Position numbers and translations under genes: made by a program. DNA of 48,146 nt. It comes from an uncultured Anaerolineales bacterium. GTDB taxonomy: Bacteria; Chloroflexota; Anaerolineae; 4572-78; NAK82. The DNA is taken from contig CAZHBM010000001.1 in the NCBI GenBank assembly GCA_964529945.1, forward strand, positions 1 through 48,146. The letters run 5' to 3'. The notes below the pieces were generated by a model. The model ran no database searches and was not told where the DNA came from. It worked only from the letters and a program-made list of their open reading frames with translations. Of the stretch, positions 20,585 to 45,038 are shown piece by piece. The first letter of the stretch is position 1. Each line of letters starts with the position of its first letter.

Positions 20585-20613
20585 ATCGTAACATGTCCGT
20601 CCCTAACGGGCAA
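20585..20613 (-). promoter_or_regulatory. Sigma70-type promoter TTGCCC-N17-TACGAT for fchA-fhs, immediately downstream of repeat copy A
   Basis: The minus strand reads TTGCCCgttagggacggacatgtTACGAT. The -35 is at 20613-20608 and the -10 at 20590-20585. Confidence 0.5.
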
Positions 20614-20624
20614 GCGGAGAGGCG

Positions 20625-20711
20625 GGTATGTCCCATATTCTTGGTGGATGGCCAGGTGAGTCGGCGGCCGCTTTTACCTATTCACTATTTCTTGTGGGTG
20701 GAAGACCTTCC
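20625..20711 (-). repeat. Intergenic repeat family, copy A (core, oriented toward fchA)
   Basis: The minus strand reads GGAAGgtCTTCCACCCACAAGAAATAgtgaataggtaaaagCGGCCGCCGACTCacctgGCCAtCcaCCAAGAAtATGGGACatACC. It aligns block for block with copies B, C and D. Confidence 0.85.
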
Positions 20712-20783
20712 GCTCTAGCCAACGCACGTTGGAATCGAGGCGAGGTTCGGGTTTTGGCACCCACGAAGCATTTGGGACAGACC
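20700..20783 (+). repeat. Intergenic repeat family, copy A2 (diverged, oriented toward hsp20, sharing the central GGAAGacCTTCC with copy A)
   Basis: The plus strand reads GGAAGacCTTCC..., then 59 nt, then GGCAcCcaCgAAGcatTTGGGACagACC. This matches the 3' block GCCAcCtgCCAAGAggATGGGACcACgCC of copy D. The length from CTTCC to GGGAC is 59 nt, against 63 nt in copy C. The middle part is poorly conserved. Confidence 0.55.
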
Positions 20784-20803
20784 CGGCGGCAGTCGAAAAT
20801 GAA

Positions 20804-20833
20804 TTGCACATCGTTTGCCGCCTATGGTATAAT
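20804..20833 (+). promoter_or_regulatory. Sigma70-type promoter TTGCAC-N18-TGgTATAAT (extended -10) for hsp20-lon
   Basis: The plus strand reads TTGCACatcgtttgccgcctatggTATAAT. The -35 is at 20804-20809 and the -10 at 20828-20833, preceded by TGg. Confidence 0.6.
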
Positions 20834-20987
20834 CTTAAGAAGTTTACGTGAATGATAGTAGTCTGCCGTTCATATTTTAATTAGATGTCGCTGATGGTTA
20901 ACCGTTTAGTGCCGCAATCACCTGGCTTGCCATGTTTTGCTGGCACAATATCGAGATGGTGTTCGTTTTTTGCACAGGAGTGGACTA

Positions 20988-21389
20988 ATGGTCAATCCGC
21001 AACAAGGGCGAGAGAGTATGTTGCTTCGTAGTTCTGGCCCCGGGCACAGTTCACGCACGGTCATTTATGGTCGCCATTGGACGATGGCCACCTACCGGGG
21101 GCGTGCCTGGAGACCGCCAACAGACGTCTTTGAGACAGCAGATGCTTACGTGGTTAAGGTCGAAATAGCCGGAATGAGTGAGGACGATTTTCGCATCACT
21201 TTCGCAGGCCGGAGTCTGTCGATTACCGGCACGCGCCACGATTCGGCTGCCAAGGTTGGGTATCATCAGATGGAGATTTCCTACGGTGAGTTCCAGACGG
21301 AAGTGGAACTGCAAGTTGCCGTCGCGGCAGAAAATATCGAAGCCGTATACCAGAACGGATTTCTGGTTGTCACATTGCCCAAACATTAG
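20988..21389 (+). CDS. hsp20: Small heat-shock protein (Hsp20 / alpha-crystallin family)
   Basis: The alpha-crystallin domain reads [32 protein letters not shown]...[13 protein letters not shown]...[15 protein letters not shown] moved the start to the ATG at 20988 (MVNPQQ...), 7 nt after AGGAG. The track start is 20937. Confidence 0.88.
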
Positions 21390-21408
21390 GTCGGAAGGAG
21401 ATGCCCAG

Positions 21409-23910: not shown

Positions 23911-23973
23911 AGAAAATGATTAAGAATATTACCCCAGCAGAGAGAGATTCTCTCAGAGAGGAGAATACACCAC

Positions 23974-25698: not shown

Positions 25699-26220
25699 AT
25701 GCGTGTCGGTGTTTTGACCGTCAGCGACCGCGCATCCAGTGGTGAATACGAGGATCTGGCCGGTCCGGCGGTGGCCGAGTTGGCAAAAGGTCAACTCCAG
25801 GCAGAAGTGGCCGAATACGCTGTCGTGCCAGATGACCTGGACGCCATCGCCGGCACCTTGAGAGCCTGGGCCGATGCCCGTGCCCTCGACTTGATCCTGA
25901 CCGTCGGCGGCACCGGATTGGCGCCCCGAGACGTCACGCCGGAAGCCACGCGAGCCGTCATCGATAGAGAAATCCCCGGCTTTCCTGTGGTTATGATGCT
26001 GGCCGGGCTTAGAATAACGCCCCACGCCGCGCTTAGCCGCGCCGTCTCGGGCAGCCGTGGCCGCACGCTGATTGTGAACCTGCCCGGTAGTCCCAAAGCC
26101 GCGCGCGAGAATCTCTCCGCCATCTCGTCCGCTCTGCCTCACGGCATCGCGCTCTTGAGAGACCAACCCGGAGCGAATCAACAGCATCACCTCGCCGTTC
26201 CGGTGTCTGGTGACGAGTGA
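25699..26220 (+). CDS. mogA: Molybdopterin adenylyltransferase / MoaB-MogA family protein
   Basis: 173 aa with VLTVSDRAS...LILTVGGTGLAPRDVTPEAT. The ATG abuts the TAG of the upstream gene (TAGATG). Confidence 0.85.
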   Translation: MRVGVLTVSDRASSGEYEDLAGPAVAELAKGQLQAEVAEYAVVPDDLDAIAGTLRAWADARALDLILTVGGTGLAPRDVTPEATRAVIDREIPGFPVVMMLAGLRITPHAALSRAVSGSRGRTLIVNLPGSPKAARENLSAISSALPHGIALLRDQPGANQQHHLAVPVSGDE

Positions 26221-26270
26221 TGACGAGTTCCGTCGTTGACCATTATCATTTGATCGTTGAGACATAGTTT

Positions 26271-26960: not shown

Positions 26961-26974
26961 GGCGAAAGAGTAGT

Positions 26975-29194: not shown

Positions 29195-29368
29195 CCGGTA
29201 ACAAAAACCAACGTAATATCCGAAAAGGTAGCTTTTTCTCTGGCGCTCCGTAGCGCCTAACCCGATTAGCATCAGTGTCGCATTTTTGGTGACTATCACG
29301 TTGGTGTCCCAGGCATCGACGTGCCCTAGCGATGGGGATTCACCCAGCCAAAACAAAAGGAGCATCTT

Positions 29369-30001: not shown

Positions 30002-30012
30002 TTAACAAAAGA

Positions 30013-30045
30013 AGAGGACCGGCGCCTGAAACGTGCCGGTCCTCT
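30013..30045. terminator. Bidirectional terminator hairpin between the convergent FHA gene and comEA
   Basis: An 11-bp stem pairs AGAGGACCGGC (30013-30023) with GCCGGTCCTCT (30035-30045) across an 11-nt loop. The upstream flank is A-rich (aacaaaagaag) and the downstream flank T-rich (gtgttcgtttg). Confidence 0.6.
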
Positions 30046-30089
30046 GTGTTCGTTTGCCCAATTGCCGGGTCACGCGGCCGGCCGCCGGT

Positions 30090-30716: not shown

Positions 30717-30723
30717 TTTGAGC

Positions 30724-31128: not shown

Positions 31129-31654
31129 GTCCGAGACTCTCGAGAATCTCCGCCTGTCGTCGCCACATCTCGGTCTTGTCCTCGGCCGTGGCGTGATCGT
31201 AGCCCAACAGGTGCAGCACGCCGTGCGTCACCAACAGCGCCAACTCCGCCTCGAGCGGGTGACCGGCCGAATGAGCCTGTCTCTTGGCCTGGGGAAACGA
31301 GATCAGGACGTCTCCCAGGTAGACCAACTGGCTGTCGGGTATGGAAACAAAATCGCTTTCCTGGTCACCAAAGGACAGCACGTCGGTCGTCGCGTCAACG
31401 CCCCGGTAGGTCCGGTTCAATTCGTGGATGACCGCGTCTCCGGCGATGACCAGCGAGAATTCGAGATCACTTTGCCCGTCGCTGCGGTCAACGCCGGCCA
31501 GTGCTTTCTGCAGCGCAAGGCCGCCAACCCGCTGCAACCAATCTTCCGAAACCAGGTCCACGTAGGCTGTCTCCACCTGGACGTGAACCTGGATGCCCGG
31601 CCGGTCTTCGTCTCTGCCGGCACCGGCTGCATCCTCCGGAGGAGAATCAGTCAT
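31088..31654 (-). CDS. ybeY: rRNA maturation endoribonuclease YbeY
   Basis: 188 aa with the zinc motif HGVLHLLGYDH. The ATG overlaps the stop of the upstream FHA/Ig/SH3b gene by 8 nt. Confidence 0.9.
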   Translation of the reverse strand: MTDSPPEDAAGAGRDEDRPGIQVHVQVETAYVDLVSEDWLQRVGGLALQKALAGVDRSDGQSDLEFSLVIAGDAVIHELNRTYRGVDATTDVLSFGDQESDFVSIPDSQLVYLGDVLISFPQAKRQAHSAGHPLEAELALLVTHGVLHLLGYDHATAEDKTEMWRRQAEILESLGLEGIDPGDSDEEV

Positions 31655-33650
31655 AATAGCGTACCGTCAGCCGCGCGCCGCTCCAATTGACGTAGTCGTC
31701 GGCGTTGTTATTGTTGGTCTCGATTTGGAACCGCATTCGCACCGGATAGACCGATTCCTGCGCATCGACGTAAGGCCCGATGCGATTGGTGACGTCGACC
31801 GGCGAAACCAGGCCGGCCGAACCGTCGAAGGTCGCCAACGTCGCCGTAGCCGGCATGGAGTAACTGCCGGAGTTCAACTGGACGGCGGACACCAGATTAA
31901 CCTCTTCAACGTACAGGATGCCCAGGCTGCCGAACGGATTGCCTGTCAGCACGTAATTGCTCAGATCGAGCTTGGCGTCCACGATTCGTTTCCCCTTGAG
32001 CTGGTTCAGGTCGAAACCGAGGAAGGCCCTCAAAGCGCGATTGGTCTGGTCGTCGCCTACCAGAGGTACCATTCGCACCTGCCCGTCCTGGCGCACGGAG
32101 CCGCCGACCACGCCGATGGTGACCGTCTTCTCCGCCCGCATGTTGATGATGACCGTCTTCTCGACCAGGCCGGACGACGTCTCGGCTTTCAGCGCATACA
32201 AGGTCGTGCCAACCGGGCAGGTGTTGCGCGAACCATACGGGCCGGTGACTCCCAAATTGTTGAACTCTCCGCCTGTCAGAAAGGCTGAGGAGACGTTCTC
32301 TATGTGCCACTGCAGCGTAACGCATTGCCCGGGATCGACATTCGTCGTATCCGACCAGAAATCGACCACCGGTCCGGTTGAGACGGTCGGACTCGGCGTG
32401 GGTGTCGGCGTTGCGGCGGTGACCGGCGTGAGCGTCAGCGTGGGCACCGGCGTGTTTGTCGGCGCAACGGTCGCTGTGACCGTGGCAGTCGGCAGCGGCG
32501 GCGCCTCGACCACCGGCACGTCATCGACGTTGTTGGCGCGGGTGAAGGGCGCGTACACCCAGCCTCTCCCGCCGCTGTTGGGCGGATAGACGATCTGCCA
32601 CCACATCCCTTGCGCGTCCTTGCCCGAAATCTGCATCTCGGTGCCCACCGGCAGCAGGTCCAGAACGCCGTAGACCTGGCCCGGGCCTTCGCGCACGTTG
32701 AGATCGTAAGTCGTCACTGCCACAGGCGAACCGCCGGGCGTCGGCTCCGAACTGGTCGGCTCGGGCGTCGGCGTAGGCGTCGCGGGTGGCAGAGGGCCGT
32801 TTTCAACCACCACCATCACCGTCGTCGGTGCACTGGGCACATCCTTGCTGTTGTAGACCTTGACCTCCAGCGTGTAATTGCCGGCGGTGGTCGGCGTCCA
32901 CTCCAGACTCACGGGGAAGGTAGGCTGCCCCTCAGAGACGGCACTCTCTTGCTGGTCCACCAACAGACCGCCTACCCACAGCTCGGCCCGAGTCACACCC
33001 AGCGTGTCGCTGGCAACCGCATTGACGAACACCGTGTCGCCGACCTGCACGCGACTGCCGGCCACCGGCGACTGTATGAAGACGTATGGTGCCGCCGGAG
33101 CGGCTTCTTCGCGCTGTTGAGACAGGAACCAACCGATGCCAATCACCAGCAGCACGACGACGAACAGGCCGGCAATGCCGCCGATTACCAACCAGGGCGT
33201 GGCCGATTCCGGCTCGATGATCTGCCCGACCCGCGTGTCGGCCGAGGCCGGACGCACCGGCCGGATTCCCAACGTATTCGGTGCCGAAAACCCTTCCACC
33301 GAGAAGACAGTGCTTCCAATAGCGATCGTTTCGGTCGGTTGCAGGCTGTGCGGCCCGGTAATACGCCTTCCGTTCACCAACGTCCCGTTGGTGCTTCCCA
33401 GGTCCTCCACCAGAAGTGTATTGCCCTTGCGCGTCAAACGCGCGTGGTTGCGAGACACCTGTGGATCGTCCAGGACCAGGTCGCTGTCCTGGCTGCGTCC
33501 TATGGTCAGAGAATCGCCGGACATCGTGTACGACCTGCCCAGGCCCTCCCCAACTTGCACGCGCAGTCGCACCGGCTGCCTCCCCAGCCCGGAAACTGTC
33601 GTGTCGCTGTGCGGACCCCGAGGCCCCTGGCCCTGCGTGCGATCTTCCAT
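31647..33650 (-). CDS. FHA-domain membrane protein with extracytoplasmic Ig-like and SH3b domains and a C-terminal beta-rich domain
   Basis: The N-terminal FHA reads TIGRSQDSDLVLDDPQVSRNHARL...VEDLGSTNGTLVNG and the TM is WLVIGGIAGLFVVVLLVIGIGWFL. Ig-like repeats follow. The SH3b domain reads YDLNVREGPGQVYGVLDLLPVGTEMQISGKDAQGMWWQIVYPPNSGGRGWVYAPF. I prefer the ATG at 33650 (MEDRTQG...), 9 nt after GAGGAG. The track TTG is at 33671. Confidence 0.8.
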   Translation of the reverse strand: MEDRTQGQGPRGPHSDTTVSGLGRQPVRLRVQVGEGLGRSYTMSGDSLTIGRSQDSDLVLDDPQVSRNHARLTRKGNTLLVEDLGSTNGTLVNGRRITGPHSLQPTETIAIGSTVFSVEGFSAPNTLGIRPVRPASADTRVGQIIEPESATPWLVIGGIAGLFVVVLLVIGIGWFLSQQREEAAPAAPYVFIQSPVAGSRVQVGDTVFVNAVASDTLGVTRAELWVGGLLVDQQESAVSEGQPTFPVSLEWTPTTAGNYTLEVKVYNSKDVPSAPTTVMVVVENGPLPPATPTPTPEPTSSEPTPGGSPVAVTTYDLNVREGPGQVYGVLDLLPVGTEMQISGKDAQGMWWQIVYPPNSGGRGWVYAPFTRANNVDDVPVVEAPPLPTATVTATVAPTNTPVPTLTLTPVTAATPTPTPSPTVSTGPVVDFWSDTTNVDPGQCVTLQWHIENVSSAFLTGGEFNNLGVTGPYGSRNTCPVGTTLYALKAETSSGLVEKTVIINMRAEKTVTIGVVGGSVRQDGQVRMVPLVGDDQTNRALRAFLGFDLNQLKGKRIVDAKLDLSNYVLTGNPFGSLGILYVEEVNLVSAVQLNSGSYSMPATATLATFDGSAGLVSPVDVTNRIGPYVDAQESVYPVRMRFQIETNNNNADDYVNWSGARLTVRYYD

Positions 33651-33746
33651 ACCTGTTTTCTCCTCAACCAAGGTAGATTACGATTTATCCATCCCTCATA
33701 TCAATATACCAAGATACCACGCCGGGCAAGCGCACTCAGGCCGTTT

Positions 33747-35312
33747 TCAGTCGATCAACCGGGCGTCGCGCCAGACCGCCCAATCCTGCCCGGACGATGG
33801 CCCGGCTTCCACCACCAGTATGATGTGGGTGGCGCCGGCAAATGGGTCCAGACCGACGTCTATGTTGCGCAACGTGCCATCGGTGCCGCTGTCGGCAACG
33901 CTGGCCACGACGGTCGGGACCGTCACGCTGCCGCCCGCGGCCAGCACGGAGAACGTCACGTCGCCGCCGGCTCCCTGGAGGAAGCCGACCGTGGCCCGGA
34001 AACGATCGCCGGTCTGAATCGGCCGGGGCAGCGCATACTCGCCGGCAATGTGCCCGTTCGGCACCCATTGCGGGTGCGTCTCGAGCACCCGGGCCGGGCG
34101 CGACCCATCTTCCAGGAATGCATTGTCGCGCCACTTCACGAAACCGCGCGAATCGGTGTCGGAGCCGTTCCACGGCAACACGTTGGCGCCCCAATTGCTG
34201 GTCCAGGCAGCCGACGGCGCACCCGACACAAAGTCCAATATGGTCGTCGGTCCGCTCGGAGGATTGACCGTGATCGTCAGTTGAGCCGTGGTATCACCTT
34301 GAGCATTGTGGGCCACCAACTTGTAGGTGGTGGTGACCGCCGGCGCCAGAGTCTTGTTCCCCGGGGCCACAACACCCTGCACGTTGCCGTCGTAGTGCAG
34401 ATAGGCCGCCTCTGCGTTGGCCAGGTCCCAATACAATGTGACGCTTTCTCCGGCCGTAATGGTGTAACGATCGGCCGTGAAACTGTAGATGACCGGTTTG
34501 CTGCTCGGCGGCGGAGGCGGCGGTCCTGCCGTTTCGGTCGGCAGCGGAGAGGTCGGTGTGCTGGTAGGAAATGCCGTCGCCGGTAGCGGAGGCGTTTCCA
34601 CGACCGGCACGCCTTCGGTACGCACGGCGGTCGAATACTTGGCGTTGGCCGAAACCCATGCCCGTCCACCGCTTCCGGCCGGATAGACAATCTGCCACCA
34701 ACTGCCGTCCGCGTTCTTGCCGGCGATTTGGGCCGACTCTCCGGCCCGCAAACCGCCGACCGCTTCGTAATCAATCCCCGGACCGCTGCGGACGTTCAGC
34801 CCAACCGACGCCGTCACCATCGCTCCGGAAGATACCTGATCGGTCGCAGCCGGCCCACCGCCGGGCGAGGTCGGCGTGGCACCGCCCGTTGCCCCGGGTG
34901 TGCCCGGGCCGGGAATCTCACCCACCGAAACGGTGACCCGCGCCGGGTCGCTGACTCGACTATCCACATCGTAGGCCCTGACCTCGACGATGTGCGTACC
35001 GACCACGCCCGGAACCCACGGCTGGCTGGCCGTATAGGATGTCACCGGTGGATCGATGGCCTGGCTGTGGACCAACGTTCCATCCACCCACAACTCTACC
35101 CGGTTGATCCCCTTGACGTCATTGGTCGCCGAAACGGACTGGACGACGACTTCCTGCCCCGGAGAAAACACCACGCCCGGTTGTGGGTAGGTGATCACCA
35201 CCGTGGGCTTGGGCTGGCCAACCCCGCCAATGCTGCAGGCCAATACGCCTACGATCAAGAGTCCGGCAACCGTCAAGGTTATCAATCGTCTGGATACGCC
35301 GTCGTTCATCAT
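33747..35312 (-). CDS. Membrane-anchored Ig-like/SH3b surface protein, a paralog of the ectodomain of the downstream FHA protein
   Basis: It has a TM (LITLTVAGLLIVGVLACS), an Ig-like domain and an SH3b domain (VGLNVRSGPGIDYEAVGGLRAGESAQIAGKNADGSWWQIVYPAGSGGRAWVSANAKY). A second Ig-like domain is shared with the neighbour. I prefer the ATG at 35312 after AGGGGG. The track start is 35354. Confidence 0.75.
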   Translation of the reverse strand: MMNDGVSRRLITLTVAGLLIVGVLACSIGGVGQPKPTVVITYPQPGVVFSPGQEVVVQSVSATNDVKGINRVELWVDGTLVHSQAIDPPVTSYTASQPWVPGVVGTHIVEVRAYDVDSRVSDPARVTVSVGEIPGPGTPGATGGATPTSPGGGPAATDQVSSGAMVTASVGLNVRSGPGIDYEAVGGLRAGESAQIAGKNADGSWWQIVYPAGSGGRAWVSANAKYSTAVRTEGVPVVETPPLPATAFPTSTPTSPLPTETAGPPPPPPSSKPVIYSFTADRYTITAGESVTLYWDLANAEAAYLHYDGNVQGVVAPGNKTLAPAVTTTYKLVAHNAQGDTTAQLTITVNPPSGPTTILDFVSGAPSAAWTSNWGANVLPWNGSDTDSRGFVKWRDNAFLEDGSRPARVLETHPQWVPNGHIAGEYALPRPIQTGDRFRATVGFLQGAGGDVTFSVLAAGGSVTVPTVVASVADSGTDGTLRNIDVGLDPFAGATHIILVVEAGPSSGQDWAVWRDARLID

Positions 35313-35486
35313 TATCCCCCTTACAGCGTCGGAGAGCTGCAGTCTTACGGTCACTAATCACACACTCAACAGAGTTTGTAATCAGCCAACACCATCCCCA
35401 GTTCCCGCCAGGGATTCAAACGAAACCATCCACCAAACTATCCAACCAGGCAATTCAGGCCATCTTATGTAATATTCTTAAACCCT

Positions 35487-35495
35487 ATTATAGCA
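35487..35495 (-). promoter_or_regulatory. Extended -10 element TGcTATAAT upstream of the Ig/SH3b-FHA-ybeY operon
   Basis: The minus strand reads ccaTGcTATAATagggt, with the -10 at 35492-35487. There is no convincing -35. If used, it implies a 5' leader of about 170 nt. Confidence 0.35.
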
Positions 35496-35508
35496 TGGTT
35501 TTTGCCCA

Positions 35509-37391: not shown

Positions 37392-37804
37392 TGATTGTCT
37401 CCACTGGGTTGGAAATGATTGCTGCCCATCACAAAGAGGAAGCTACACAGGAGGCGCAACAGGCATATGCCGGCTAGGCCGACGCCGGCTGCGACCTGGC
37501 GTGTCAAGACGGTGAATGGGGCAGCGTAGAAGGCTGCGAAGAAGACAAACGCGCCGTTGGCCAGCATCAGCACCCATTGGTCGCCCGGTGAGGCAGCGAT
37601 CTTGCGCAGGGCAACCACCATCAGAGGGATTTCGGCCAGCGAAAAAACGAGGACGAATGCCATCAACGATAGTGTCGCCACGCGTCCTTGTATCAGAGGG
37701 GCGCCGGGTGCCTGAATCGCCCAGCCGGCCGCCACGACGGTCAGGAGGCCTCCGACGATGAGTCCCACCATCCCGGAGGCAATCAGCCGGTTACGTTTCG
37801 TCAT
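37388..37804 (-). CDS. Hypothetical integral membrane protein (4 predicted TM helices)
   Basis: The sequence is hydrophobic throughout. I prefer the ATG at 37804 (MTKRNRLIASGMVGLIVGG...). The track start is 37852. It overlaps the upstream gene by 14 nt. Confidence 0.5.
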   Translation of the reverse strand: MTKRNRLIASGMVGLIVGGLLTVVAAGWAIQAPGAPLIQGRVATLSLMAFVLVFSLAEIPLMVVALRKIAASPGDQWVLMLANGAFVFFAAFYAAPFTVLTRQVAAGVGLAGICLLRLLCSFLFVMGSNHFQPSGDNQ

Positions 37805-38054
37805 CTCCGTCTTTGGCCAGGTCACGCTCCACTTCCACGGCTGCGGTGGCAATGGCCCAACTGACCACGCCCCACGTCAAGCCCGAAATGACTGCGCCCA
37901 TTCCCAGTGACCAGGCCGTCACCGGAGTCGTTGGATCACGAAAGACGCCCACCACCGTCAAAACAATGCCGACGACGGCAAAGGCGATACCTATCTTCGT
38001 TGGCCCGTTTAGGCGCCCCCAAAATGTGGGATGATCCGCTTGTGTCTCAGCCAC
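37791..38054 (-). CDS. Hypothetical small membrane protein (2 predicted TM helices)
   Basis: I prefer the GTG at 38054, 7 nt after GGGAGG. It translates as (M)AETQADHPTFWGRLNGPTKIGIAFAVVGIVLTVVGVF... The track ATG at 38150 lies inside repeat copy B and its promoter. Confidence 0.5.
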   Translation of the reverse strand: MAETQADHPTFWGRLNGPTKIGIAFAVVGIVLTVVGVFRDPTTPVTAWSLGMGAVISGLTWGVVSWAIATAAVEVERDLAKDGDDET

Positions 38055-38098
38055 CGTTTCGCCTCCCAAAAAGCCGGGCACCCCGGCAGTTGGCTCAG

Positions 38099-38127
38099 AT
38101 TGTAACAGATTTGGGACGCACGAGCAA
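38099..38127 (-). promoter_or_regulatory. Sigma70-type promoter TTGCTC-N17-TACAAT downstream of repeat copy B
   Basis: The minus strand reads TTGCTCgtgcgtcccaaatctgtTACAAT. The -35 is at 38127-38122 and the -10 at 38104-38099. Confidence 0.55.
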
Positions 38128-38143
38128 GCTTTCGCGAGGGTTA

Positions 38144-38239
38144 GGTGCATCTCATTTTCTTGGCAGATGGCTAGAAGAGTCGGCGGCCGGTTTTATCTCT
38201 CTTTGTGTCTTGTGGGTGGCAGGCCTTCCACCCATAAGA
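38144..38239 (-). repeat. Intergenic repeat family, copy B (core plus palindromic arm)
   Basis: The minus strand reads tcttatgggtGGAAGgcCTgCCACCCACAAGAcAcaaagagagataaaaCCGGCCGCCGACTCttctaGCCAtCtgCCAAGAAaATGaGAtgcACC. Confidence 0.85.
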
Positions 38240-38290
38240 AATAGAGGAATACTACCTGATTCGGCGCCAGACGATGTGTGGCAGAAGGGT

Positions 38291-40915
38291 CTAGCGCTCG
38301 TCTGCCAGAGCGGCTTCAAAGTGAATCGAGGTCAGAGCACCGGTAGAGGCATTGCTTAAACTGACACTGCCGCGCAATTCCTTGCGCACGATGTTTTGCA
38401 CCAAGTACAGGCCCACGCCGGTCTGATCCCCTCCCAGGACGGCCTCAGGATATCCCGGCCCATTATCGCCGAACGCAATTGCGACCATCCCCTTCTCGAC
38501 GGAGACGTCTATTTGCATCTCCCCCAAAGTCTGGGCGTCGAATGCGTGCTTCAGGCTGTTGGTCGCCAGCTCGTTGATGACCAGGGCCAGGCTATGCGCC
38601 TGGTCCGGCGTCACCAACACTTGACACGGCTGTACCTGGACCAGTGGACGGTGGCTACGGGCCATGATCTGAACGGTAGCGTGAATGATACGTTCGATCA
38701 GGTCGCTGAGAGACAGAGGCGCCCATTGGCTGGCGGTCAACATACTGTGTACAGTCGCCATACCTTGAATGCGGCAGGTCATTTTCTGCACGATGGACTC
38801 GTGACCCTCAGCCTCGTCGGCCCCATCACGGAATTGCTCGGCATATAGCAGGCCGATGATACCGGTCAGATTGTTTTTCACGCGGTGGTTGACTTCCCGC
38901 AGCAGCGTGGCCTTGGTCTCCGCATCACGGCTGGCCTGCTCGAGAAGCGCCGCGTTTTCCAATGCCAGGCGTCGATAGTTCTGTTCGCTCTGGCGCAATG
39001 CTTCCTCGGCCATTTTGCGGTCGGTGATATCGCGCCCGACCCCCTGGATCTCCTTCAACGTCCCGTCGTCGTCAAAGATCGGCCTTTCCGTCCACTGCAC
39101 CCAACGCGTGCCCAGGTCGTTCAGGGTCTCAGGGTACTCGCTGGTCACCACGCGATTATCGTCACCATTGCTCGACCGTCGCCATTCGGCGATCCGGCCA
39201 AGGATCCGTTCTTGATCTTCGGGCGAGAAACGCTCCAGCCAGTTCCATTCGACGGTCTGCTCACACCGTAATCCGTAGCGCTGGCAATAGGCACTGTTGG
39301 CAAAGGTGAGGCGCCCATCCGGCAACCAGCGGCACACAAATTCGCTCTGGTCTTCCACAATAGCGCGATAACGGTTTTCGCTGGTGCGCAGGGCTTCGGC
39401 GACGCGCTGGCGCACGAGGACGTTGGTCAGCACTTCGCCAATCAAGCGAAACAACCTCAGATCGCTATCGGTCCATCGGCGCCGGATCTGCATCATATTC
39501 AAGCCCAAGAGACCGACCAGCCCACCACCTTCGAGCAATGGCACGACCAGCAACGACCGCACCTTGCGGCGCATCAAGAGCCGCTTGCCATCACTCGTCT
39601 CGTCCGGCAAATCGTCCACGTCCCAAACTTGAAGCACTTTTCCGGCCCGCAACGAAGGCAAAGCCCAGGCGAGCTCGGCCAGGCCGGGGGCGGCATCTTT
39701 GTCTCCACGGCCCTCGATTCCCGCGTGATACCAAACGAAAGATCGCTCGACGGAAGGGACGCTGTCCGGGCCGCCGGCCTCACCGGCGAACAGAAGAAGA
39801 TAGCTGCAGTCGACTGCGGCGAAACGGGCAATTGCTTGCAGGGTCCGGTCGATCTCGCCGCTGTAGGCTTCGGGAGATAGGGTGACAAAGCGGGTCGAAA
39901 TCTGACTGACCAACTCCTCCGCCAGAAGTCGGTGCTGCAGGGCAACTTCCGCCCGTTTGCGGTCGGCCAACTCGCGCCGGGTCTGCTGGTAAAGCTGGGC
40001 GTTGTGGATGGCAACTGCCGCCCATTCGGCAAAATCCCGTAAGCGCCATGCGTCCGATTCCTTAAAATGATTGGGCTGGCTGCTGTTGGCGTTCAGGAAA
40101 CCGATCACACGATCGTCGATGATGATCGGTGCGCCGATGTAGGATTTTATCCACGTCACCTCAGGCCTTTGTACCCAGGCCGCGTACGATTCAACGTCGG
40201 GGATTGCCACGGGCAGGCCGCTGCGCTGCATGCGCAGGTGGTTCTCGATCTCATCCACCCGATACTTGACTTGAGAAATATACGCCTCGCCCCCAAAGCG
40301 CTCGTAGCCGCGCCAGCGCAGGGCACGCATCGTTTCCCCGTTGATCAGCATGATGTCCGCGGCGTCGTAGGGTAGCACCAGCTCCATCAATTGCAGGATG
40401 AGGTCGAGCACCTCTTCGTAGTTCAAGGTGCTGTTAAGTGCAGCGCCAACTCTCAGCAGCACCTCATTCAGAGCGCGCTGCTCTTTCTCGTACTCCAGCC
40501 GTTTTTCGCGCTCCAGCTCCAGCCGCTTGCGCTCGACTGCACAGGCGACCACGTCGGCCAGCGCCTGGATTTCGTGTACCGGGCCGGCCAGACATTCTTG
40601 AGCGCCACTCTGTATCAACCGGGCCGCTCGAGAGCCTATCTCCGGCCCGCCGACGGCTACAATCGGCATCTCAGGCCAACGCTCACGCACGTGCGAGACC
40701 AAATCGTGCACCGGGTGGCCATTATCGATGACGTCCAACCCAAGCAACAGCACGTCGATGTCGCCCTGGTCGAGACGAACGGCGCCGCTATTCCAGTCAG
40801 GGGCCGTGTATAGCACAAGTTCGGCGTAATTGCTGTCGAGCAGGTCACCGTCGGCCGGCGCGAGGCGGGCGTCTTTGATATCACCGATGAGCAACACCGA
40901 CATCCTGCGAGACAC
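38291..40915 (-). CDS. Multidomain sensor histidine kinase: degenerate receiver-like domain, GAF domains, PAS, then HisKA_2-type kinase
   Basis: The H-box is LLREVNHRVKNNLTGIIGLL (HisKA_2/HWE-like). The HATPase motifs are ELATNSLKHAF, GDNGPGYP and GVGLYLV. A PAS segment reads ENRYRAIVEDQSEFVCRW. I prefer the GTG at 40915, 7 nt after GGAGG, or the ATG at 40903. The track ATG at 41140 falls in low-GC non-coding sequence. Confidence 0.8.
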   Translation of the reverse strand: MSRRMSVLLIGDIKDARLAPADGDLLDSNYAELVLYTAPDWNSGAVRLDQGDIDVLLLGLDVIDNGHPVHDLVSHVRERWPEMPIVAVGGPEIGSRAARLIQSGAQECLAGPVHEIQALADVVACAVERKRLELEREKRLEYEKEQRALNEVLLRVGAALNSTLNYEEVLDLILQLMELVLPYDAADIMLINGETMRALRWRGYERFGGEAYISQVKYRVDEIENHLRMQRSGLPVAIPDVESYAAWVQRPEVTWIKSYIGAPIIIDDRVIGFLNANSSQPNHFKESDAWRLRDFAEWAAVAIHNAQLYQQTRRELADRKRAEVALQHRLLAEELVSQISTRFVTLSPEAYSGEIDRTLQAIARFAAVDCSYLLLFAGEAGGPDSVPSVERSFVWYHAGIEGRGDKDAAPGLAELAWALPSLRAGKVLQVWDVDDLPDETSDGKRLLMRRKVRSLLVVPLLEGGGLVGLLGLNMMQIRRRWTDSDLRLFRLIGEVLTNVLVRQRVAEALRTSENRYRAIVEDQSEFVCRWLPDGRLTFANSAYCQRYGLRCEQTVEWNWLERFSPEDQERILGRIAEWRRSSNGDDNRVVTSEYPETLNDLGTRWVQWTERPIFDDDGTLKEIQGVGRDITDRKMAEEALRQSEQNYRRLALENAALLEQASRDAETKATLLREVNHRVKNNLTGIIGLLYAEQFRDGADEAEGHESIVQKMTCRIQGMATVHSMLTASQWAPLSLSDLIERIIHATVQIMARSHRPLVQVQPCQVLVTPDQAHSLALVINELATNSLKHAFDAQTLGEMQIDVSVEKGMVAIAFGDNGPGYPEAVLGGDQTGVGLYLVQNIVRKELRGSVSLSNASTGALTSIHFEAALADER

Positions 40916-41133
40916 AGCGTCCCCTCCTTGACCGGTTCGACGTGAGCAGCCAGCGTCTGTTGCAGACTCAAAAACTGTGCTATTTGTGTGCAATTTACCG
41001 TACGGCAACGGGAACCAATCTTTCTCCGGCACGAACGGCAATATTTGCCATTCTCGCCCGGTGCAGACAGTAGATTGCCCGGGAAAGTCGCCCCTCAAGG
41101 CCAATGGCAAAGCCGGCCTTTCAACGAGCCCTT

Positions 41134-41200
41134 GTCCCATTGTACAATTTTGGCACAGAAATGGACAATAGGCCTTTGGTCACATAGGCGACGATTGCCG
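41134..41200 (-). repeat. Possible sixth, degenerate copy (E) of the repeat 3' block, oriented toward the kinase gene
   Basis: The minus strand reads tCCATtTCTGtGCCAAaAttgtacaATGGGACaagg. The core of copies A-D here reads GCCATCTGCCAAGAAAATGGGAC. Only the 3' block is recognisable, and it contains indels. Confidence 0.3.
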
Positions 41201-41213
41201 CCTCCAAGTTAGC

Positions 41214-41390
41214 GGATGTGCCGCATATTTTTTGTTGGAGAAATTGGACCGGGCCATGGGTTCGGGAGAGACCGCTCACACAGCGTTGTCTCATGACTCG
41301 TGAATGGAAGGTCGTCCACCCACGCGAAAATGAACGGATATTCCGGCCGCCGACTCTTATAGCCACCTGCCAAGAGGATGGGACCACGCC
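41214..41390 (+). repeat. Intergenic repeat family, copy D (5' extension plus core, oriented toward sppA)
   Basis: The core from 41306 reads GGAAGgtCgTCCACCCACgcGAAAatgaacggatattCCGGCCGCCGACTCttataGCCAcCtgCCAAGAggATGGGACcACgCC. The 5' extension at 41214-41281 matches 44783-44860 of copy C. Confidence 0.85.
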
Positions 41391-41401
41391 CCAAAATTGG
41401 C

Positions 41402-41430
41402 TTGCGCCCGGCGCCAGACTGCGGTAGAAT
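41402..41430 (+). promoter_or_regulatory. Sigma70-type promoter TTGCGC-N17-TAGAAT for sppA, 17 nt downstream of repeat copy D
   Basis: The plus strand reads TTGCGCccggcgccagactgcggTAGAAT. The sppA ATG is 46 nt downstream and is preceded by GGGAG. Confidence 0.55.
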
Positions 41431-41475
41431 CGCTCTAGCACCGTCCAGCTCAGGCGGTGCCAAAGGGAGCTGACT

Positions 41476-42438
41476 ATGCGACCAAAACTCTTGCACGGCT
41501 GGATCGAAGCCGTGTTTCTGGGTGTGTGCCTGGCGATTGGGTTGACCATCGCCTTCGTTTTTGCACCGCAGCCAAGCCGGCCAGTAGTTGGTGTGCTTCA
41601 TTTTGAAGGCTTGATCGAACCGGCCAGCGCGCAACAGATGGCCGCCATATTGGATGCGGCGCGCCGAGACGACAGCCTGGCAGCAGTTGTGATGGAAATT
41701 GACTCGTACGGCGGTCTGTCGACCAGTAGCGAGAGTCTCTACCACGCCATGCTGCAATTGCGCCAGGAGAAACCGCTGGCCGTCGTCATCGACGGCGCGG
41801 CCACCAGTGGGGCCTACTACATGGCCGTGGCCGGCAACAAGCTCTACGCAACCGCCAGCAGCGAGATCGGCAACGTCGGCGCCTGGACAATGCGCCCATC
41901 GGACCCCCAGGTATACGCCGACGTCATCAGCACCGGCCCCTACAAGCTGAGCGGCGGCAGCCGTTTCGATGCCATACGCCAGTTGCAGTTGACCCGTGAT
42001 GCGTTCGTGGCCAGCGTGGTCTACCAAAGGAAGCAGTCGCCCGAAAACCCGCTCAAGATCGACCAAACGTCACTGGCCGAAGGCCGCGTCTACATGGGTA
42101 CCGAGGCCCTGGCCCTGGGGTTGATCGACGAACTGGGCGCCACCGCCGACGCCGTTTTGTGGGTAGCCGGCCAGGCTGGTTTGGCCAACTACCAGGTCGA
42201 AGAGCTGTCCGGCTACCTGGACATGGAGTTCGACGCCATCGGCCTGTCGGCTCTGTCCGGGGTCCTCGACGCCGGGCTTCCCGGCAGCGTATTGTTGTTG
42301 GACAGCCGGGTGCCGGCGGCGCTCCGGGCGGATCAAGAGGCAAGCACCCAGGCGGATAAAGGTGCCCTTCAGCTAAGGGCAGCGCTCTACGCGGGCGGCG
42401 CCGGTCTTTCCGCATCGGGCGAGGAGGTGCAGCCATGA
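41476..42438 (+). CDS. sppA: Signal peptide peptidase SppA, 36K type (peptidase S49)
   Basis: 320 aa with an N-terminal TM. The S49 core reads VVMEIDSYGG...VIDGAATSGAYYMAVAGNKLYA, and a GPYKLSG lysine region is present. Confidence 0.85.
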   Translation: MRPKLLHGWIEAVFLGVCLAIGLTIAFVFAPQPSRPVVGVLHFEGLIEPASAQQMAAILDAARRDDSLAAVVMEIDSYGGLSTSSESLYHAMLQLRQEKPLAVVIDGAATSGAYYMAVAGNKLYATASSEIGNVGAWTMRPSDPQVYADVISTGPYKLSGGSRFDAIRQLQLTRDAFVASVVYQRKQSPENPLKIDQTSLAEGRVYMGTEALALGLIDELGATADAVLWVAGQAGLANYQVEELSGYLDMEFDAIGLSALSGVLDAGLPGSVLLLDSRVPAALRADQEASTQADKGALQLRAALYAGGAGLSASGEEVQP

Positions 42439-44762
42439 ACCGCACCCTCCGCCCCCTGGTCGTCATTCTGATCGGTCTAGGTTTGCTGGTCGCGCCCTAT
42501 CTCGTCAGCCTGGGATTGGCCCATCCGGCAGCCAGCACTTACCAGCCGCCGCAAGCCGACCTGCCGGACCTGGCGGTCACGGCAATCCCAACCACGGCGC
42601 CGGCACCTGTGACGCCCGAGGCGTCGTCGGCTCAGTTCGGCCCCGGCAGCGTCGTGGTCGACCTGGCCCACTTCTCGGACGTCGGGCCGACCCGTTTTCA
42701 GCCCCTGGCCGGCTATCTGGCAGCCTATGGCGTCGATTTAGACTTCTGGATGAACGAAGAGGACGCTGCAAACATCGACTTTTCTACCATGGCGGACCTG
42801 CCCGACCAGTCTCAGAAGCTGGCCGAGTTGTTGCAGGACGCCGCCGGTCTGGTGGTGATCAATCCGGCCTTTTGGTGGACCGCCGACGAAATTGAGGTCG
42901 CCCAGGAGTTTGTGGCCGATGGCGGGCGGCTGGTCATCATCAACGACCCGGATATTGCCGAACCGCCCGAGTTCTTCTACCCCGACATGAACAGCCTGAG
43001 CGAGCCCTTCGGCATCGTGTTCAACAACGATTACCTGTTCAACCTGACCCATAACGATCTCAATTTCACCCACGTCTACCAGGCCGACTTCACCGGCCAG
43101 GCCGCCGGGCTGGCCGGCAGTACCATCGTTTTCTACGGAACGCGCAGCATCAGCGGCCCGGCAGTGCCCCAGGTGCTCACCGGCGACGAAACGTTGAGCA
43201 GCCTGCGGACCGGACTGACCGGATTCACGACGGCGGCTATCGGCGGCTTGTCGCCCGATGGGACCGGCGGCAACGTGCTGGCCCTGGGCGATTTCGACGT
43301 GCTGACCGAGCCTTACGTCAATCGTTATGACAACCAAAAAATGGCCAATTTTGTCGCCCAGTTCCTGGCCGGCAGCCGGCGCGTGGACACGCTGACCGAC
43401 TTTCCGGCCTATCTGGGGCAGGACGTGGCCCTGGTGTTTGGCCCCGACGGCCCGCTGGACGCAACGTTGTTGCAGGCCAGCAGCACCTTGCAGGAGTTGT
43501 TGCTCCGCAGCGGCCGGACGATGTCGCTGGCTGCACCCGACACGACCGTCCTGTCGACGACAACCACCCTCGCCGGTGAGGGAACGGCGGACGTGATCTA
43601 TGCCGCCTCCTACGCGACGGCCGCCCGTGATACACTTCTGCTTCAAAACGCAGGGATACGCCTGGTCACGCCGGCCGAAGAAGACGTGTCACCGGTTGGA
43701 CCGGCCGGCAGCGGCACCGAGTTGTTACCCGGGGACGTCATGACCGCGACCGGTCAAATCGACGAGACCGGCCCGGCTTCGGCCGCATTATCGGCCACCG
43801 AGGAGACGACCGGCACGGCGGTGCTGGAGACCAGTTTCGGCCCCAGCTTCAACCCCCAGGAGATCACGCTCTTCCTGCGCCAGCAACTCGACTCCGGGAC
43901 GAACGTGACCGCCGTCCTGGTCGGCGACGATGATCAGCACGCCACGCTGCGCGCCGGCCTCGACCGGCTGCAAAACGCCGATTTCGGCGACTGCCTGACC
44001 TTCCCCGACCTGGTCATCTGCCCGGCTGCCGAGAAACAGTCGGGCGCCGAGGAGGGAGCAGAACAGCCGGGCGATAGCGGCCTGCCGTCCCTGCCCGAAT
44101 CGACCGAGCCGCTGCCCCTGCCGGACGTTACCAGCGACACCCTGTTGATCGATGATGACCAATACGCTAGCGGCGACGAGTTGAGCGAGGCCGACATCTA
44201 CCTGACCGCCATGCTTGATTACGGCTACTATCCCGACACGTGGTCTACCGCCCTCAACGGCCTGCCGCAACTGGAGGACCTATCCGCTTATCGCTGGGTC
44301 ATCTGGAGCGCCGGCGAGTACGCGGACAACAGTCTGGGCTACGACGAGCTGGACATGCTCATGAGCTACCTGCAAGACGGCGGTATCGTGACTCTCAGCG
44401 GCCGGCGACTTTCACCTGACCTGGAACAAGGCACGGCCACGGAGCTTCGCGACGTGGTCATCACCGACGCGCTGCCGGACCTGGTTACCGACCTGCCGGA
44501 TACGCCGGTCGACCTGGAGGAAGGTCTGCCGGCTGTGGTACCCCTCGGGGAGTCCATCGGTGAGGCGGAAGTGACCGTATTGCGCCGGGGGGCCAACAGC
44601 GAAGATGCCGATTCTCCGGTGATGAAGGTCATCGCCGACAGCGGCTCACCGAGCCGCGGCCAGCCCCAGGTTATCGCCATCGCCATGTCACTCACCTGGC
44701 TGCCGGCCGACTACGCCAACCAGTTGATCGGCAATATGGCTCTGTGGACCAGTGCCGAATAG
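42435..44762 (+). CDS. Hypothetical acidic exported or membrane-anchored protein (775 aa), translationally coupled to sppA
   Basis: The ATG overlaps the sppA stop (ATGA). The N-terminal TM is LRPLVVILIGLGLLVAPYLVSLGL. The two terminal domains look like flavodoxin or GATase1-like folds (VVINPAFWWTADEIEVAQEFVADGGRLVII and YRWVIWSAGEY...YLQDGGIVTLSG). I did not recognise a named family with confidence. Confidence 0.6.
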   Translation: MNRTLRPLVVILIGLGLLVAPYLVSLGLAHPAASTYQPPQADLPDLAVTAIPTTAPAPVTPEASSAQFGPGSVVVDLAHFSDVGPTRFQPLAGYLAAYGVDLDFWMNEEDAANIDFSTMADLPDQSQKLAELLQDAAGLVVINPAFWWTADEIEVAQEFVADGGRLVIINDPDIAEPPEFFYPDMNSLSEPFGIVFNNDYLFNLTHNDLNFTHVYQADFTGQAAGLAGSTIVFYGTRSISGPAVPQVLTGDETLSSLRTGLTGFTTAAIGGLSPDGTGGNVLALGDFDVLTEPYVNRYDNQKMANFVAQFLAGSRRVDTLTDFPAYLGQDVALVFGPDGPLDATLLQASSTLQELLLRSGRTMSLAAPDTTVLSTTTTLAGEGTADVIYAASYATAARDTLLLQNAGIRLVTPAEEDVSPVGPAGSGTELLPGDVMTATGQIDETGPASAALSATEETTGTAVLETSFGPSFNPQEITLFLRQQLDSGTNVTAVLVGDDDQHATLRAGLDRLQNADFGDCLTFPDLVICPAAEKQSGAEEGAEQPGDSGLPSLPESTEPLPLPDVTSDTLLIDDDQYASGDELSEADIYLTAMLDYGYYPDTWSTALNGLPQLEDLSAYRWVIWSAGEYADNSLGYDELDMLMSYLQDGGIVTLSGRRLSPDLEQGTATELRDVVITDALPDLVTDLPDTPVDLEEGLPAVVPLGESIGEAEVTVLRRGANSEDADSPVMKVIADSGSPSRGQPQVIAIAMSLTWLPADYANQLIGNMALWTSAE

Positions 44763-44764
44763 TG

Positions 44765-44797
44765 CCCGGCACGGCCGGGTATGTGCCGACTTTTTTT
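44765..44797 (+). terminator. Intrinsic terminator after the 775-aa gene. Its 3' half and T-run are also the start of repeat copy C.
   Basis: The sequence is gCCCGGCACggccgggtatGTGCCGacTTTTTTT. The stem pairs CGGCAC (44767-44772) with GTGCCG (44783-44788). An alternative CCCGG/CCGGG pairing is possible. The T7 run is at 44791-44797. Confidence 0.6.
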
Positions 44798-44973
44798 GTT
44801 GGAGAAATAGGATCGAACCAAAGTCTGGCTGCAAAGTAAGTTCGTGAGAGATCACTCACATGTAGAATTCTTTATTTCTTGTGGATGGAAGACCTTCCAC
44901 CCACAAGAAATAACAAAGAGGAAAAATCGACCGCCGACCGGCGTGCTCCTCTACCGAGAAAATGGGACGCACC
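44783..44973 (+). repeat. Intergenic repeat family, copy C (5' extension, 20-bp palindrome and core, oriented toward the 91-aa ORF)
   Basis: The palindrome at 44872-44913 is TTATTTCTTGTGGaTGGAAGacCTTCCAcCCACAAGAAATAA. The core reads ...acaaagaggaaaaatCGaCCGCCGACcggcgtGCtcctctaCCgAGAAaATGGGACgcACC. Confidence 0.85.
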
Positions 44974-45038
44974 CGGTGCGGCGTCAGCGAGCGACGAATT
45001 GTGTTGGGTTTTTGGCGTGAAGCCAGCAAGGAGCGGAT

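Follow-up and report, generated by a model that had tools for sequence, protein, structure and literature searches.

Several promoters in this genome are preceded by the same conserved intergenic sequence, which raises the question of whether that sequence is a regulatory module and whether the promoters are part of it. In an earlier note on the whole stretch of DNA analysed here (48,146 nt, referred to as the window), a family of at least five modules of 85-95 nt had been described, each pointing at its downstream gene from a position just upstream of a promoter. A promoter-carrying MITE-like element, a duplicated promoter or insulator cassette, and a platform for a nucleoid or global regulator had been put forward as explanations.

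The sequences quoted for the modules were all found where the earlier note had placed them. For an nhmmer scan of the window, the full copies A, B, C, and D were combined in one HMM, which recovered positions 20620-20721 (-), 38141-38246 (-), 44870-44977 (+), and 41289-41392 (+) with E values of about 5e-27 to 6e-31. These matches were followed in rank by their palindrome partners and then by copy A2, which is weaker but holds (20684-20785, +, E = 3e-4). Beyond these, no match was obtained in the window below E = 1, and searches of the window for solo left arms of C and D and for further degenerate copies found none. The 17-mer CTTCCACCCACAAGAAA, allowing up to three mismatches, occurs seven times, while 0.09 occurrences are expected. 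Thus, the repeat family is genuine and multi-copy.

The unit of the repeat had to be redefined. Modules of 85-95 nt are half-elements, since A and A2 constitute the two arms of one 163-nt element and C and D share about 90 nt more upstream. Four elements result, all within 25 kb (Table 1), and their half-elements are 64-77% identical in pairwise comparisons. All four contain a central palindrome, TTTCTTGTGGGTGG-N8-CCACCCACAAGAAA (14-8-14), one arm of which forms the 5' end of each module. The changes degrading it in three of the four copies (A, B, and D) are not compensated. The outer ends are inverted repeats of roughly 28 nt (CGGGTATGTCCCATATTCTTGGTGGATG), and their inner part is resembled by the arms of the central palindrome (CCACCCACAAGAAA). 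Clear inverted repeats are evident in only one of the four elements, element 1, with 23 of 28 positions matching (none of 1000 shuffles was as good); B is truncated. The left ends of C and D were only marginally similar in pairwise tests (p 0.007-0.03 among 15 comparisons); an independent HMM of five right ends misses them and gives no support for treating them as inverted repeats. At the left edge of C, a terminator-like hairpin is followed by T7. Beyond ...ACC(C), the copies are no longer similar to one another; from this point to the -35 box there are 9-18 nt.

Table 1 Elements, their parts, and neighbouring promoters in the window
Feature	Position	Strand	nhmmer E	Remarks
Element 1 (A + A2)	20623..20785	.	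3e-28 (A arm)	163 nt, complete, nearly symmetric; between divergent fchA and hsp20 promoters
Element 1, left inverted repeat	20623-20650
Element 1, right inverted repeat	20758-20785
Element 1, palindrome arm	20688-20711			surviving arm
Element 2 (B)	38142..38256	-	6e-31	115 nt, truncated: about 12 nt, full central palindrome (38206-38241), and right arm; between kinase stop codon (38291) and small-membrane-protein gene promoter; similarity to C begins near 38258
Element 3 (D + left arm of ~90 nt)	41213..41391	+	5e-27	179 nt; between divergent kinase and sppA promoters; left arm common to C
Element 3, palindrome	41297-41327			degraded
Element 4 (C + left arm of ~100 nt)	44776..44975	+	3e-30	200 nt; inside conserved sppA / 775-aa / 91-aa / YtfJ gene string
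Element 4, palindrome	44875-44910			best preserved of all copies
fchA promoter, TTGCCC-17-TACGAT	20585..20613	-		9 nt from left end of element 1, outside it; older than element
hsp20 promoter, TTGCAC-18-TATAAT	20804..20833	+		18 nt from right end of element 1; older than element
Small-membrane-protein gene promoter, TTGCTC-17-TACAAT	38099..38127	-		14 nt from end of element 2; older than element
sppA promoter, TTGCGC-17-TAGAAT	41402..41430	+		10 nt from right end of element 3; older than element
Kinase promoter, TTGTCC-18-TACAAT	41139..41168	-		copy E of the earlier note; outside the family

The corresponding sites were inspected in syntenic relatives showing 65-76% protein identity. No copy of the element is present in the 70.7 kb examined, and all four orthologous sites lack it. 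The -35 boxes of fchA and hsp20, 188 nt apart in the window, are separated by 16 nt in L018 and L020. In the kinase/sppA spacer, the distance from GTCACATTGG to the -35 box of sppA is 26 nt in L006 and L012 compared to 213 nt, and the intergenic distance separating the 775-aa gene from the 91-aa gene, the site of C, is 58-61 nt in L005, L006, and L010 compared to 276 nt. At the B site, L006 keeps the promoter of the small-membrane-protein gene and 14 nt upstream of it (AATCTGTTACAATC is identical), and no element remnant is detectable there; one possible remnant, CCACCCCCAAAAACAAA, was not significant (p about 0.1) and drew a blank with nhmmer. The 12-mer ATGAAATGCACC upstream of sppA in L005, which is similar to ATGAGATGCACC of B, was treated as a chance match; no model scores this region. 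Relatives of fchA with about 53% identity could not be used as an empty site, because the upstream region is not syntenic (surE-fchA), and relatives of hsp20 served instead. Around all copies, the genes have the order and orientation seen in the relatives, and the inserts are sharply bounded, with no flanking DNA copied along.

All four promoters next to the elements are kept in relatives without the element, including hexamers and spacing. For fchA, the relatives have TTGCnn-17-TACGAT (TTGCAC-17-TACGAT in L018, TTGCCG-17-TACGAT in L020); for hsp20, TTGCTC or TTGCAC-18-TATAAT, with ATGGTATAATC identical in L018, L019, L020, and L021; for the small-membrane-protein gene, TTGCyC-17-TACAAT; and for sppA, TTGCGC-17-TAGAAT, conserved in L005, L006, L010, L012, and L013. 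Since relatives lacking the element have the same promoters, the promoters predate the elements, and insertion took place 9-18 nt upstream of them. The element itself carries no promoter. A duplicated promoter cassette is thereby refuted, the promoter lying outside the repeated unit and occurring where the repeat is absent; for the same reason, the description "promoter-carrying MITE-like" could be retained only in its second part. Promoters of the sigma-54 (TGGCAC-N5-TTGC) or ECF type (GGAAC-N16-CGT) within the module were also considered and rejected, as judged by eye, because the spacings do not fit.

Other positional claims could also be refined. Promoters do follow the GGGAC block of A, B, D, and A2, at 16, 21, 17, and 25 nt, respectively, as had been noted; for C, located within an operon, no promoter was predicted. 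Copy E (41134-41200), a possible remnant according to the earlier note, was not upheld as a member of the family. It is detected by no repeat model and corresponds to the kinase promoter, and the region around the -35 box (GACAATAGG...GTCACAT) is conserved in the relatives L006, L010, and L012, which lack the repeat, and more loosely in L013. That every copy faces its downstream gene conveys little information: A/A2 is symmetric and D is located between divergent genes, so only the orientation of B and C is informative, with a chance expectation of 1/4.

In other lineages, the spacer upstream of sppA holds insertions unrelated to the element, of 90 nt in L013 and 196 nt in L010. In L005, where the gene context differs, the sppA promoter is preceded by an 83-nt palindrome. 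These observations point to a permissive site rather than to a functional module.

From these analyses, the repeats are probably four copies of a lineage-specific, non-autonomous MITE-like element of 115-200 nt in the genome of an uncultured, Anaerolineae-like member of the Chloroflexota. Their size is that of MITEs (roughly 70-300 bp, under 500), coding capacity is lacking, the copies are dispersed, and for all four elements the orthologous sites are empty; terminal inverted repeats in the range of ~15-30 bp are found in element 1. Size, inverted repeats, intergenic position, and decaying direct repeats fit published definitions of MITEs (PMC10969869, PMC3733652, PMC11602168). The absence of an ORF, already noted, was confirmed. 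No ORF is common to the copies: a frame starting at the ATG of the module continues without a stop into fchA in A, ends after four codons in B, and yields short unrelated peptides in C and D.

The full element is an imperfect long palindrome. Each end may carry a pair of similar sites bound by a transposase whose gene lies elsewhere in the genome, and the central palindrome could mark the point at which both ends of a parent insertion sequence became joined after deletion of its gene. The intergenic DNA into which the copies were inserted is intact and far shorter in the relatives; three of the four insertions lie 9-18 nt upstream of a pre-existing -35 box. The apparent pointing at genes would then follow from the symmetry of the element, and the position just upstream of promoters from the shortness of the permissive spacers between back-to-back promoters (16 and 26 nt). 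Any effect on expression, such as a wider separation of divergent promoters or extra hairpins in the transcripts at B and C, would be incidental.

The lengths of the inserts bear on the mode of insertion. Net inserts of 172 and 187 nt, compared to 163 and 179 nt delimited by the repeats, leave a surplus of 9 nt for element 1 and 8 nt for element 3; the surplus was measured against fixed spacers in two relatives per site and depends on the placement of the ends, so that 5-9 nt would be possible for element 1. A surplus of 8-9 nt is expected from a target duplication of 8-9 bp. The duplications are not directly readable at D and A/A2, where the candidates match at five of eight positions (D) and at four of nine without gaps or about seven of ten with one gap (A/A2). 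The window contains no transposase, full-length parent element, or recombinase gene. Public collections were scanned with a 20-base pattern matching all four copies. Four chance hits were obtained in a collection with one genome per species, three in JGI metagenomes, and none in viral contigs, where a second pattern gave two chance hits; according to nhmmer, none of these is a family member. A BLAST search with element 4 against plasmids and phages found nothing.

A different explanation, considered unlikely, is that the element, however it arose, has been co-opted as a regulatory or insulator cassette, in which a host nucleoid protein or stress regulator binds the palindrome, CGGCCGCCGAC, and CCAAGAAAATGGGAC, and tunes or insulates the adjacent promoters. 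It would account for two observations: four of the five well-supported arms have their outer end 9-18 nt away from a -35 box, and invariant columns cluster in blocks separated by a variable, purine-rich spacer (p=0.025); this mild clustering is the only positive support for the regulator platform of the earlier note. Moreover, proteostasis genes (hsp20-lon, sppA) are among the neighbours, and element 1 has moved back-to-back promoters 172 nt apart. However, the same promoters operate without the module in relatives, the differing distances between GGGAC and the -35 box (16, 17, 21, or 25 nt) leave no fixed helix face, C is inside an operon without a promoter, and the palindrome decays in A, B, and D without compensation. 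No common function links the neighbouring genes (fchA, membrane protein, 91-aa ORF), and four loci are too few for an enrichment test. Three independent insertions, each no more than 18 nt from a -35 box, and the clustered invariant columns could nevertheless reflect function or targeting rather than mere tolerance. A more specific proposal combines both, namely that the family or its transposase targets the DNA 10-20 bp upstream of sigma-70 -35 boxes, for example in highly supercoiled spacers between back-to-back promoters, and that the conserved internal blocks have been co-opted as a platform insulating or tuning divergent promoters of stress genes (hsp20-lon | fchA, sppA | kinase). In this combined form it appears quite improbable.

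An RNA element, i.e., a common 5' leader, a small RNA, or a 3' hairpin stabilising or terminating transcripts, is very unlikely. B, located after the kinase gene, and C, in an operon, are probably transcribed, such roles are known for repeats of the REP and ERIC types (PMC3733652), and C offers both the hairpin with T7 at its left edge and a palindrome hairpin that is very stable on the two strands (z = -6.2 and -5.6). In B the fold is less pronounced (z = -1.6), whereas A and D fold like shuffled sequences (z = -0.06 and +0.35). No structure is common to the copies; the consensus fold reaches -5.8 kcal/mol with essentially no covariation, and only the palindrome folds, in agreement with the earlier observation that the 3' half supports no RNA fold. 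A T-run is absent after the central palindrome on both strands, so it was rejected as an intrinsic terminator. A, A2, B, and D lie upstream of a conserved promoter and are therefore outside the transcript of that gene. Rfam scans gave nothing at the gathering score for the whole window, nor at E values up to 10 for positions 41100-41500 (the D region), bearing out that the repeat matches no described RNA family. Least probable of all is a spread by recombination, through segmental duplication or gene conversion of an intergenic segment or through a site for a site-specific recombinase (a lox/dif-like 14-8-14 core with accessory arms): the palindrome geometry, a third similar motif about 49 nt away, the unreadable target duplications, and the inverted orientation of B and D around the kinase gene would suit it, but no inversion or deletion between copies has become fixed, given the unchanged gene order, the inserts have sharp boundaries and brought no copied flanking DNA, the window has no recombinase gene, and three of four palindromes are degraded.

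A MITE-like element is of an ordinary kind, and its closeness to promoters is only mildly interesting. The case calls for caution, since a long "conserved intergenic motif upstream of promoters" proved here to be made up of half-copies of a mobile element, inserted where older promoters leave only a few permissive base pairs between them, and the ATG of the element causes ORFs to be called too long. A MITE-like family is added to a poorly sampled lineage of the Chloroflexota, with three clean cases of insertion 9-18 nt upstream of -35 boxes, two of which split divergent promoters otherwise 16 and 26 nt apart. Should the element genuinely prefer to insert upstream of promoters across the genome, it could serve as a useful natural probe of this DNA and would allow a test of whether separating divergent promoters matters.

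Comparisons with known elements revealed partial likeness to several of them. According to ISfinder signatures, IS1 has ends reading GGnnnTG and direct repeats of 8-9 bp, and IS6 has GG and 8 bp (PMC10425158 table 8; PMC6807381). Of seven element ends, five fit GGnnnTG, and the inserts exceed the elements by 8-9 nt. A four-base signature at ends whose placement is partly free is too short to decide, and neither a transposase nor a full-length element accompanies it; parentage by IS1 or IS6/IS26 is a possible lead from the sequence rather than a classification. With REP/BIME sequences, mobilised by RAYT, the element shares a GC-containing central palindrome of ~36 nt, the intergenic position, and mosaic combinations of extra motifs, and GTAG-tagged repeats have been reported in Chloroflexi (PMC3733652). 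However, REPs are 20-40 bp long and end directly in GTAG or CGTC, while the conserved unit here is four to five times longer and GTAG, absent from A and D, is separated from the palindrome by about 9-10 nt in B and C. In addition, HUH/RAYT transposition creates no target duplication, whereas one is suggested by the surplus of the inserts. The enterobacterial ERIC/IRU, RU-1, and RU-2 repeats (127-168 bp) are likewise long imperfect palindromes of similar size, intergenic, and old and diverged, and no transposase is known for them. They belong to another phylum and show no sequence similarity, and ERIC usually lies in transcribed regions, in contrast to three of the four copies here, which are upstream of promoters. 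Correia elements duplicate TA at the target, whereas the target surplus here amounts to about 8-9 nt, and the sequences are not similar. Nevertheless, these Neisseria MITEs (Correia/NEMIS, about 100-155 bp) resemble the new family in being small and non-coding, with inverted-repeat ends, many intergenic copies, often directly upstream of genes, and variants that are full-length or differ internally. Inside operons they are transcribed into hairpin-forming RNA (PMC10969869). Correia elements bring along their own promoters and an IHF site, while the promoters found here are older than the insertions next to them.

The module sequences of 85-95 nt quoted in an earlier note on this DNA were all found where it had placed them. 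An nhmmer profile of the four complete copies (A, B, C and D), run over the window, recovered each of them with E-values of 3e-28 to 6e-31 and the diverged copy A2 with 3e-4; further copies were not detected in the window at E<1. The 17-mer CTTCCACCCACAAGAAA occurs seven times in the window when up to three mismatches are allowed, against 0.09 occurrences expected. The repeat is therefore genuine and well beyond chance. The two scans of large collections relied on one strict pattern, which diverged family members elsewhere could escape. The distances of 16-25 nt between the GGGAC block and the -35 box were also correct for A, D, B and A2, while no promoter was predicted at C. The stretch named E (41134-41200), regarded earlier as a possible remnant copy, is the promoter of the kinase gene itself (TTGTCC-18-TACAAT), and the -35 region of this promoter (GACAATAGG...GTCACAT) is conserved in relatives without the repeat. 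A separate 77-nt stretch with 73% identity, shared by the paralogous neighbours 31647-33671(-) and 33747-35354(-), one encoding FHA, Big_7 and SH3_3 domains and the other Big_7 and SH3_3, is coding-sequence paralogy unrelated to the element family.

The modules had been misdrawn as units; they are half-elements of longer palindromic elements. At its 5' end, every module has a single arm of the palindrome TTTCTTGTGGGTGG-AAGACCTT-CCACCCACAAGAAA. C has a nearly perfect palindrome and B a slightly damaged one; that of D is degraded and that of A half lost. A and A2 run outward from a common palindrome centre, and their outer ends, 20623-20650 (CGGGTATGTCCCATATTCTTGGTGGATG) and the reverse complement of 20758-20785, match at 23 of 28 positions, which was equalled in none of 1000 shuffles. 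With this shared centre and the inverted outer ends, A and A2 are thus a single, nearly symmetric element of 163 nt (element 1). B is designated element 2. C and D have an additional 90-100 nt in common to the left of the palindrome, and with this left arm, which retains a palindrome arm, they constitute elements 4 and 3, respectively. The outer end of the left arm showed a marginal likeness to the right-hand end (p 0.007-0.03 in pairwise tests; the ends were aligned with MAFFT) and was missed by a model made from the five right ends alone. For these reasons inverted repeats, proven in one copy, are treated as unproven in C and D. The palindrome arm (CCACCCACAAGAA) has a counterpart of similar sequence in the inner part of the outer repeat, CCAyCyrCCAAGAA, and a direct reading of the sequence thus shows two such motifs in each half-element, separated by about 49 nt. 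GGnnnTG is present at five of seven element ends.

Coordinates of repeat modules, redrawn elements and element-adjacent promoters in the window
Feature	Coordinates	Strand	Remarks
A	20620-20721	-	HMM match
A2	20684-20785	+	HMM match, E 3e-4
B	38141-38246	-	HMM match
C	44870-44977	+	HMM match
D	41289-41392	+	HMM match
Element 2 (B)	38142-38256		truncated ~12 nt past palindrome
Element 3 (D + left arm)	41213-41391		179 nt
Element 4 (C + left arm)	44776-44975		200 nt
Element-adjacent promoter	20585-20613		
Element-adjacent promoter	20804-20833		
Element-adjacent promoter	38099-38127		
Element-adjacent promoter	41402-41430		

Decisive evidence came from a comparison with relatives. Protein searches assigned the window to an uncultured Chloroflexota lineage; the closest relatives showed only 65-76% protein identity, and the named matches were Anaerolineae and Ardenticatenia MAGs. 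Contigs of relatives are syntenic around all four element sites. Between fchA and hsp20, loci L018 and L020 contain divergent promoters back to back, TTGCAC or TTGCCG-17-TACGAT for fchA and TTGCTC-18-TATAAT for hsp20, with the -35 boxes exactly 16 nt apart. In the window the -35 boxes of the same promoters (TTGCCC-17-TACGAT and TTGCAC-18-TATAAT) are separated by 188 nt, the extra 172 nt being the A+A2 element. Between the kinase gene and sppA, 26 nt separate the conserved GTCACATTGG from the sppA -35 box (TTGCGC-17-TAGAAT) in L006 and L012, compared to 213 nt in the window, and the extra 187 nt are D with its left arm. At the 3' end of the kinase gene, the promoter of the small membrane protein gene is conserved in L006, with AATCTGTTACAATC unchanged, as are some 14 nt preceding the -35 box; no remnant of B was detectable there. 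The 775-aa gene and the 91-aa ORF are separated by 276 nt in the window, compared to 58-61 nt in L005, L006 and L010. None of the repeat models detected a copy in 70.7 kb from relatives. Since relatives without elements keep the promoters, the promoters are ancestral and the elements later insertions; the suggestion that the modules carry promoters is refuted.

The four conserved promoters next to elements have a -35 box of the type TTGCnC rather than TTGACA, spacers of 17-18 nt and good -10 boxes, and their orthologues in L005, L006, L010, L012, L018 and L020 show TTGCnn. TTGCnC may be the housekeeping promoter consensus of this lineage. The longest ORFs of fchA, 19935-20636(-), and the membrane protein gene, 37791-38150(-), begin at an ATG within the element (ATGGGAC/ATGAGA block), and the ATG of the longest kinase ORF, 38291-41140(-), overlaps its own -10 box (TACAATGGGAC). 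All three of these start positions are upstream of conserved promoters. The true starts are likely further in, at 20543 for fchA and at a GTG near 38054 for the membrane protein; for the kinase, the start is probably some 80 codons in, around MSVLLIGD. All three genes could be called too long by automatic annotation.

An RNA element received little support. There is no Rfam match, in agreement with the earlier failure to recognise a described family, and no ORF is common to the copies, as had been noted. The observation that no RNA fold is supported in the 3' half was likewise borne out. Folding of A (z = -0.06) and D (z = +0.35) was no better than that of shuffled sequences, B was marginal (z = -1.6), and C alone stood out (z = -6.2), wholly through its palindrome. 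The consensus fold reached -5.8 kcal/mol with covariation essentially nil, most of the changes that B, C and D show in their palindrome arms disrupt base pairs, and neither strand has a T-run after the central palindrome.

Several structures were seen beside the elements. At 44767-44788 (+), flanking DNA and the left edge of element 4 each contribute half of a terminator-like hairpin, CGGCAC...GTGCCG, with ACTTTTTTTG after it. The hairpin lies within the sppA/775 aa/91 aa/YtfJ gene string, which is uninterrupted in relatives with spacers of about 60 nt, and no promoter was predicted 3' of it. In the leader of the small membrane protein gene, between the -10 box and the ribosome-binding site GGGAGG, the GC-rich hairpin GCCGGGGTGCCCGGC at 38073-38087 (-) is followed by TTTTT and may be an attenuator; L006 shares the T-run and the GGGGGAGGG site. 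In hsp20, a small heat-shock gene, the 5' leader is long, at about 150 nt (window 20834-20987 (+); L018 5873-6000; L020 566-698). The only part of it that does not vary is GCACAGGAGT, at the ribosome-binding site, and the consensus fold of the three sequences is weak (-7.2 kcal/mol); an RNA thermometer is conceivable. Relatives have the sppA leader GGCAGAAGGGAAGCGCTTCCATG in common (L005 9975-10003; L006 4803-4829; L010; L012), in which a palindrome, GGAAGCGCTTCC, covers the ribosome-binding site and adjoins the start codon. The window has a different leader sequence, AAAGGGAGCTGACTATG. The leader palindrome is superficially like the element centre, GGAAGACCTTCC.

The claim that every copy faces its downstream gene holds for B and C. 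It is uninformative for element 1, which is symmetric, and for D, which is located between divergent genes, as any orientation would face some gene there. With B and C as the only informative copies, both would face their genes by chance with a probability of 1/4. Element ends are 9, 18, 14 and 10 nt from the -35 boxes. This nearness is largely forced by geometry, because at two sites the 16- or 26-nt spacer is the only DNA outside promoters and leaders. Upstream of the sppA -35 box, unrelated extra DNA is found in L010 (1268-1463, 196 nt) and L013 (1915-2004, 90 nt), compared to 26 nt in L006/L012. In L005, where the upstream neighbour of sppA is a different gene, an unrelated imperfect palindrome of 83 nt (9796-9878; 33-nt arms, 82% complementary) precedes the sppA promoter, and no second copy of it was found among the compared loci. 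These unrelated sequences argue for a permissive landing site, apparently a recurrent one. There may still be a true preference for DNA upstream of promoters, or the elements may have been co-opted as insulators or binding platforms, and the invariant columns of the copies are mildly clustered (p=0.025). However, the blocks vary in their phasing with respect to the -35 box, one copy sits within an operon, and the neighbouring genes are unrelated, all of which argues against a dedicated regulatory module.

Most likely, the copies constitute a MITE-like, non-autonomous element family, as one of the earlier candidate explanations had it. Published accounts of prokaryotic MITEs, which include direct repeats that fade with age (PMC10969869, PMC3733652, PMC11602168), agree with the elements' size and absence of coding capacity, the inverted repeats that were proven in a single copy, the multiple dispersed copies and the clean empty sites. 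They also agree with the surplus of the net insert over the repeat-delimited element, 9 nt (172-163, element 1) and 8 nt (187-179, element 3), which varies with the chosen element ends (5-9 nt for element 1). A target duplication of 8-9 bp would give such a surplus, although the candidate duplicates, with matches at 5/8 positions at D and at 4/9 (ungapped) at A/A2, have decayed beyond reading. Half-elements are 64-77% identical to one another, which indicates an old insertion burst, yet one younger than the split from the sampled relatives. The window encodes no transposase or recombinase, its genes being housekeeping only. The doubled motif in each half could serve as two binding sites for a transposase, and the palindrome in the centre could be the junction of both ends of a parent insertion sequence whose gene was lost; such a parent would consist of a transposase gene bounded by CGGGTATGTCCCATATTCTTGG in inverted orientation. 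As a lead only, the combination of GGnnnTG at five of seven ends and a surplus of 8-9 nt is reminiscent of the IS1 and IS6 signatures in ISfinder (PMC10425158, PMC6807381). The earlier interpretation was thus partly right, MITE-like but not promoter-carrying.
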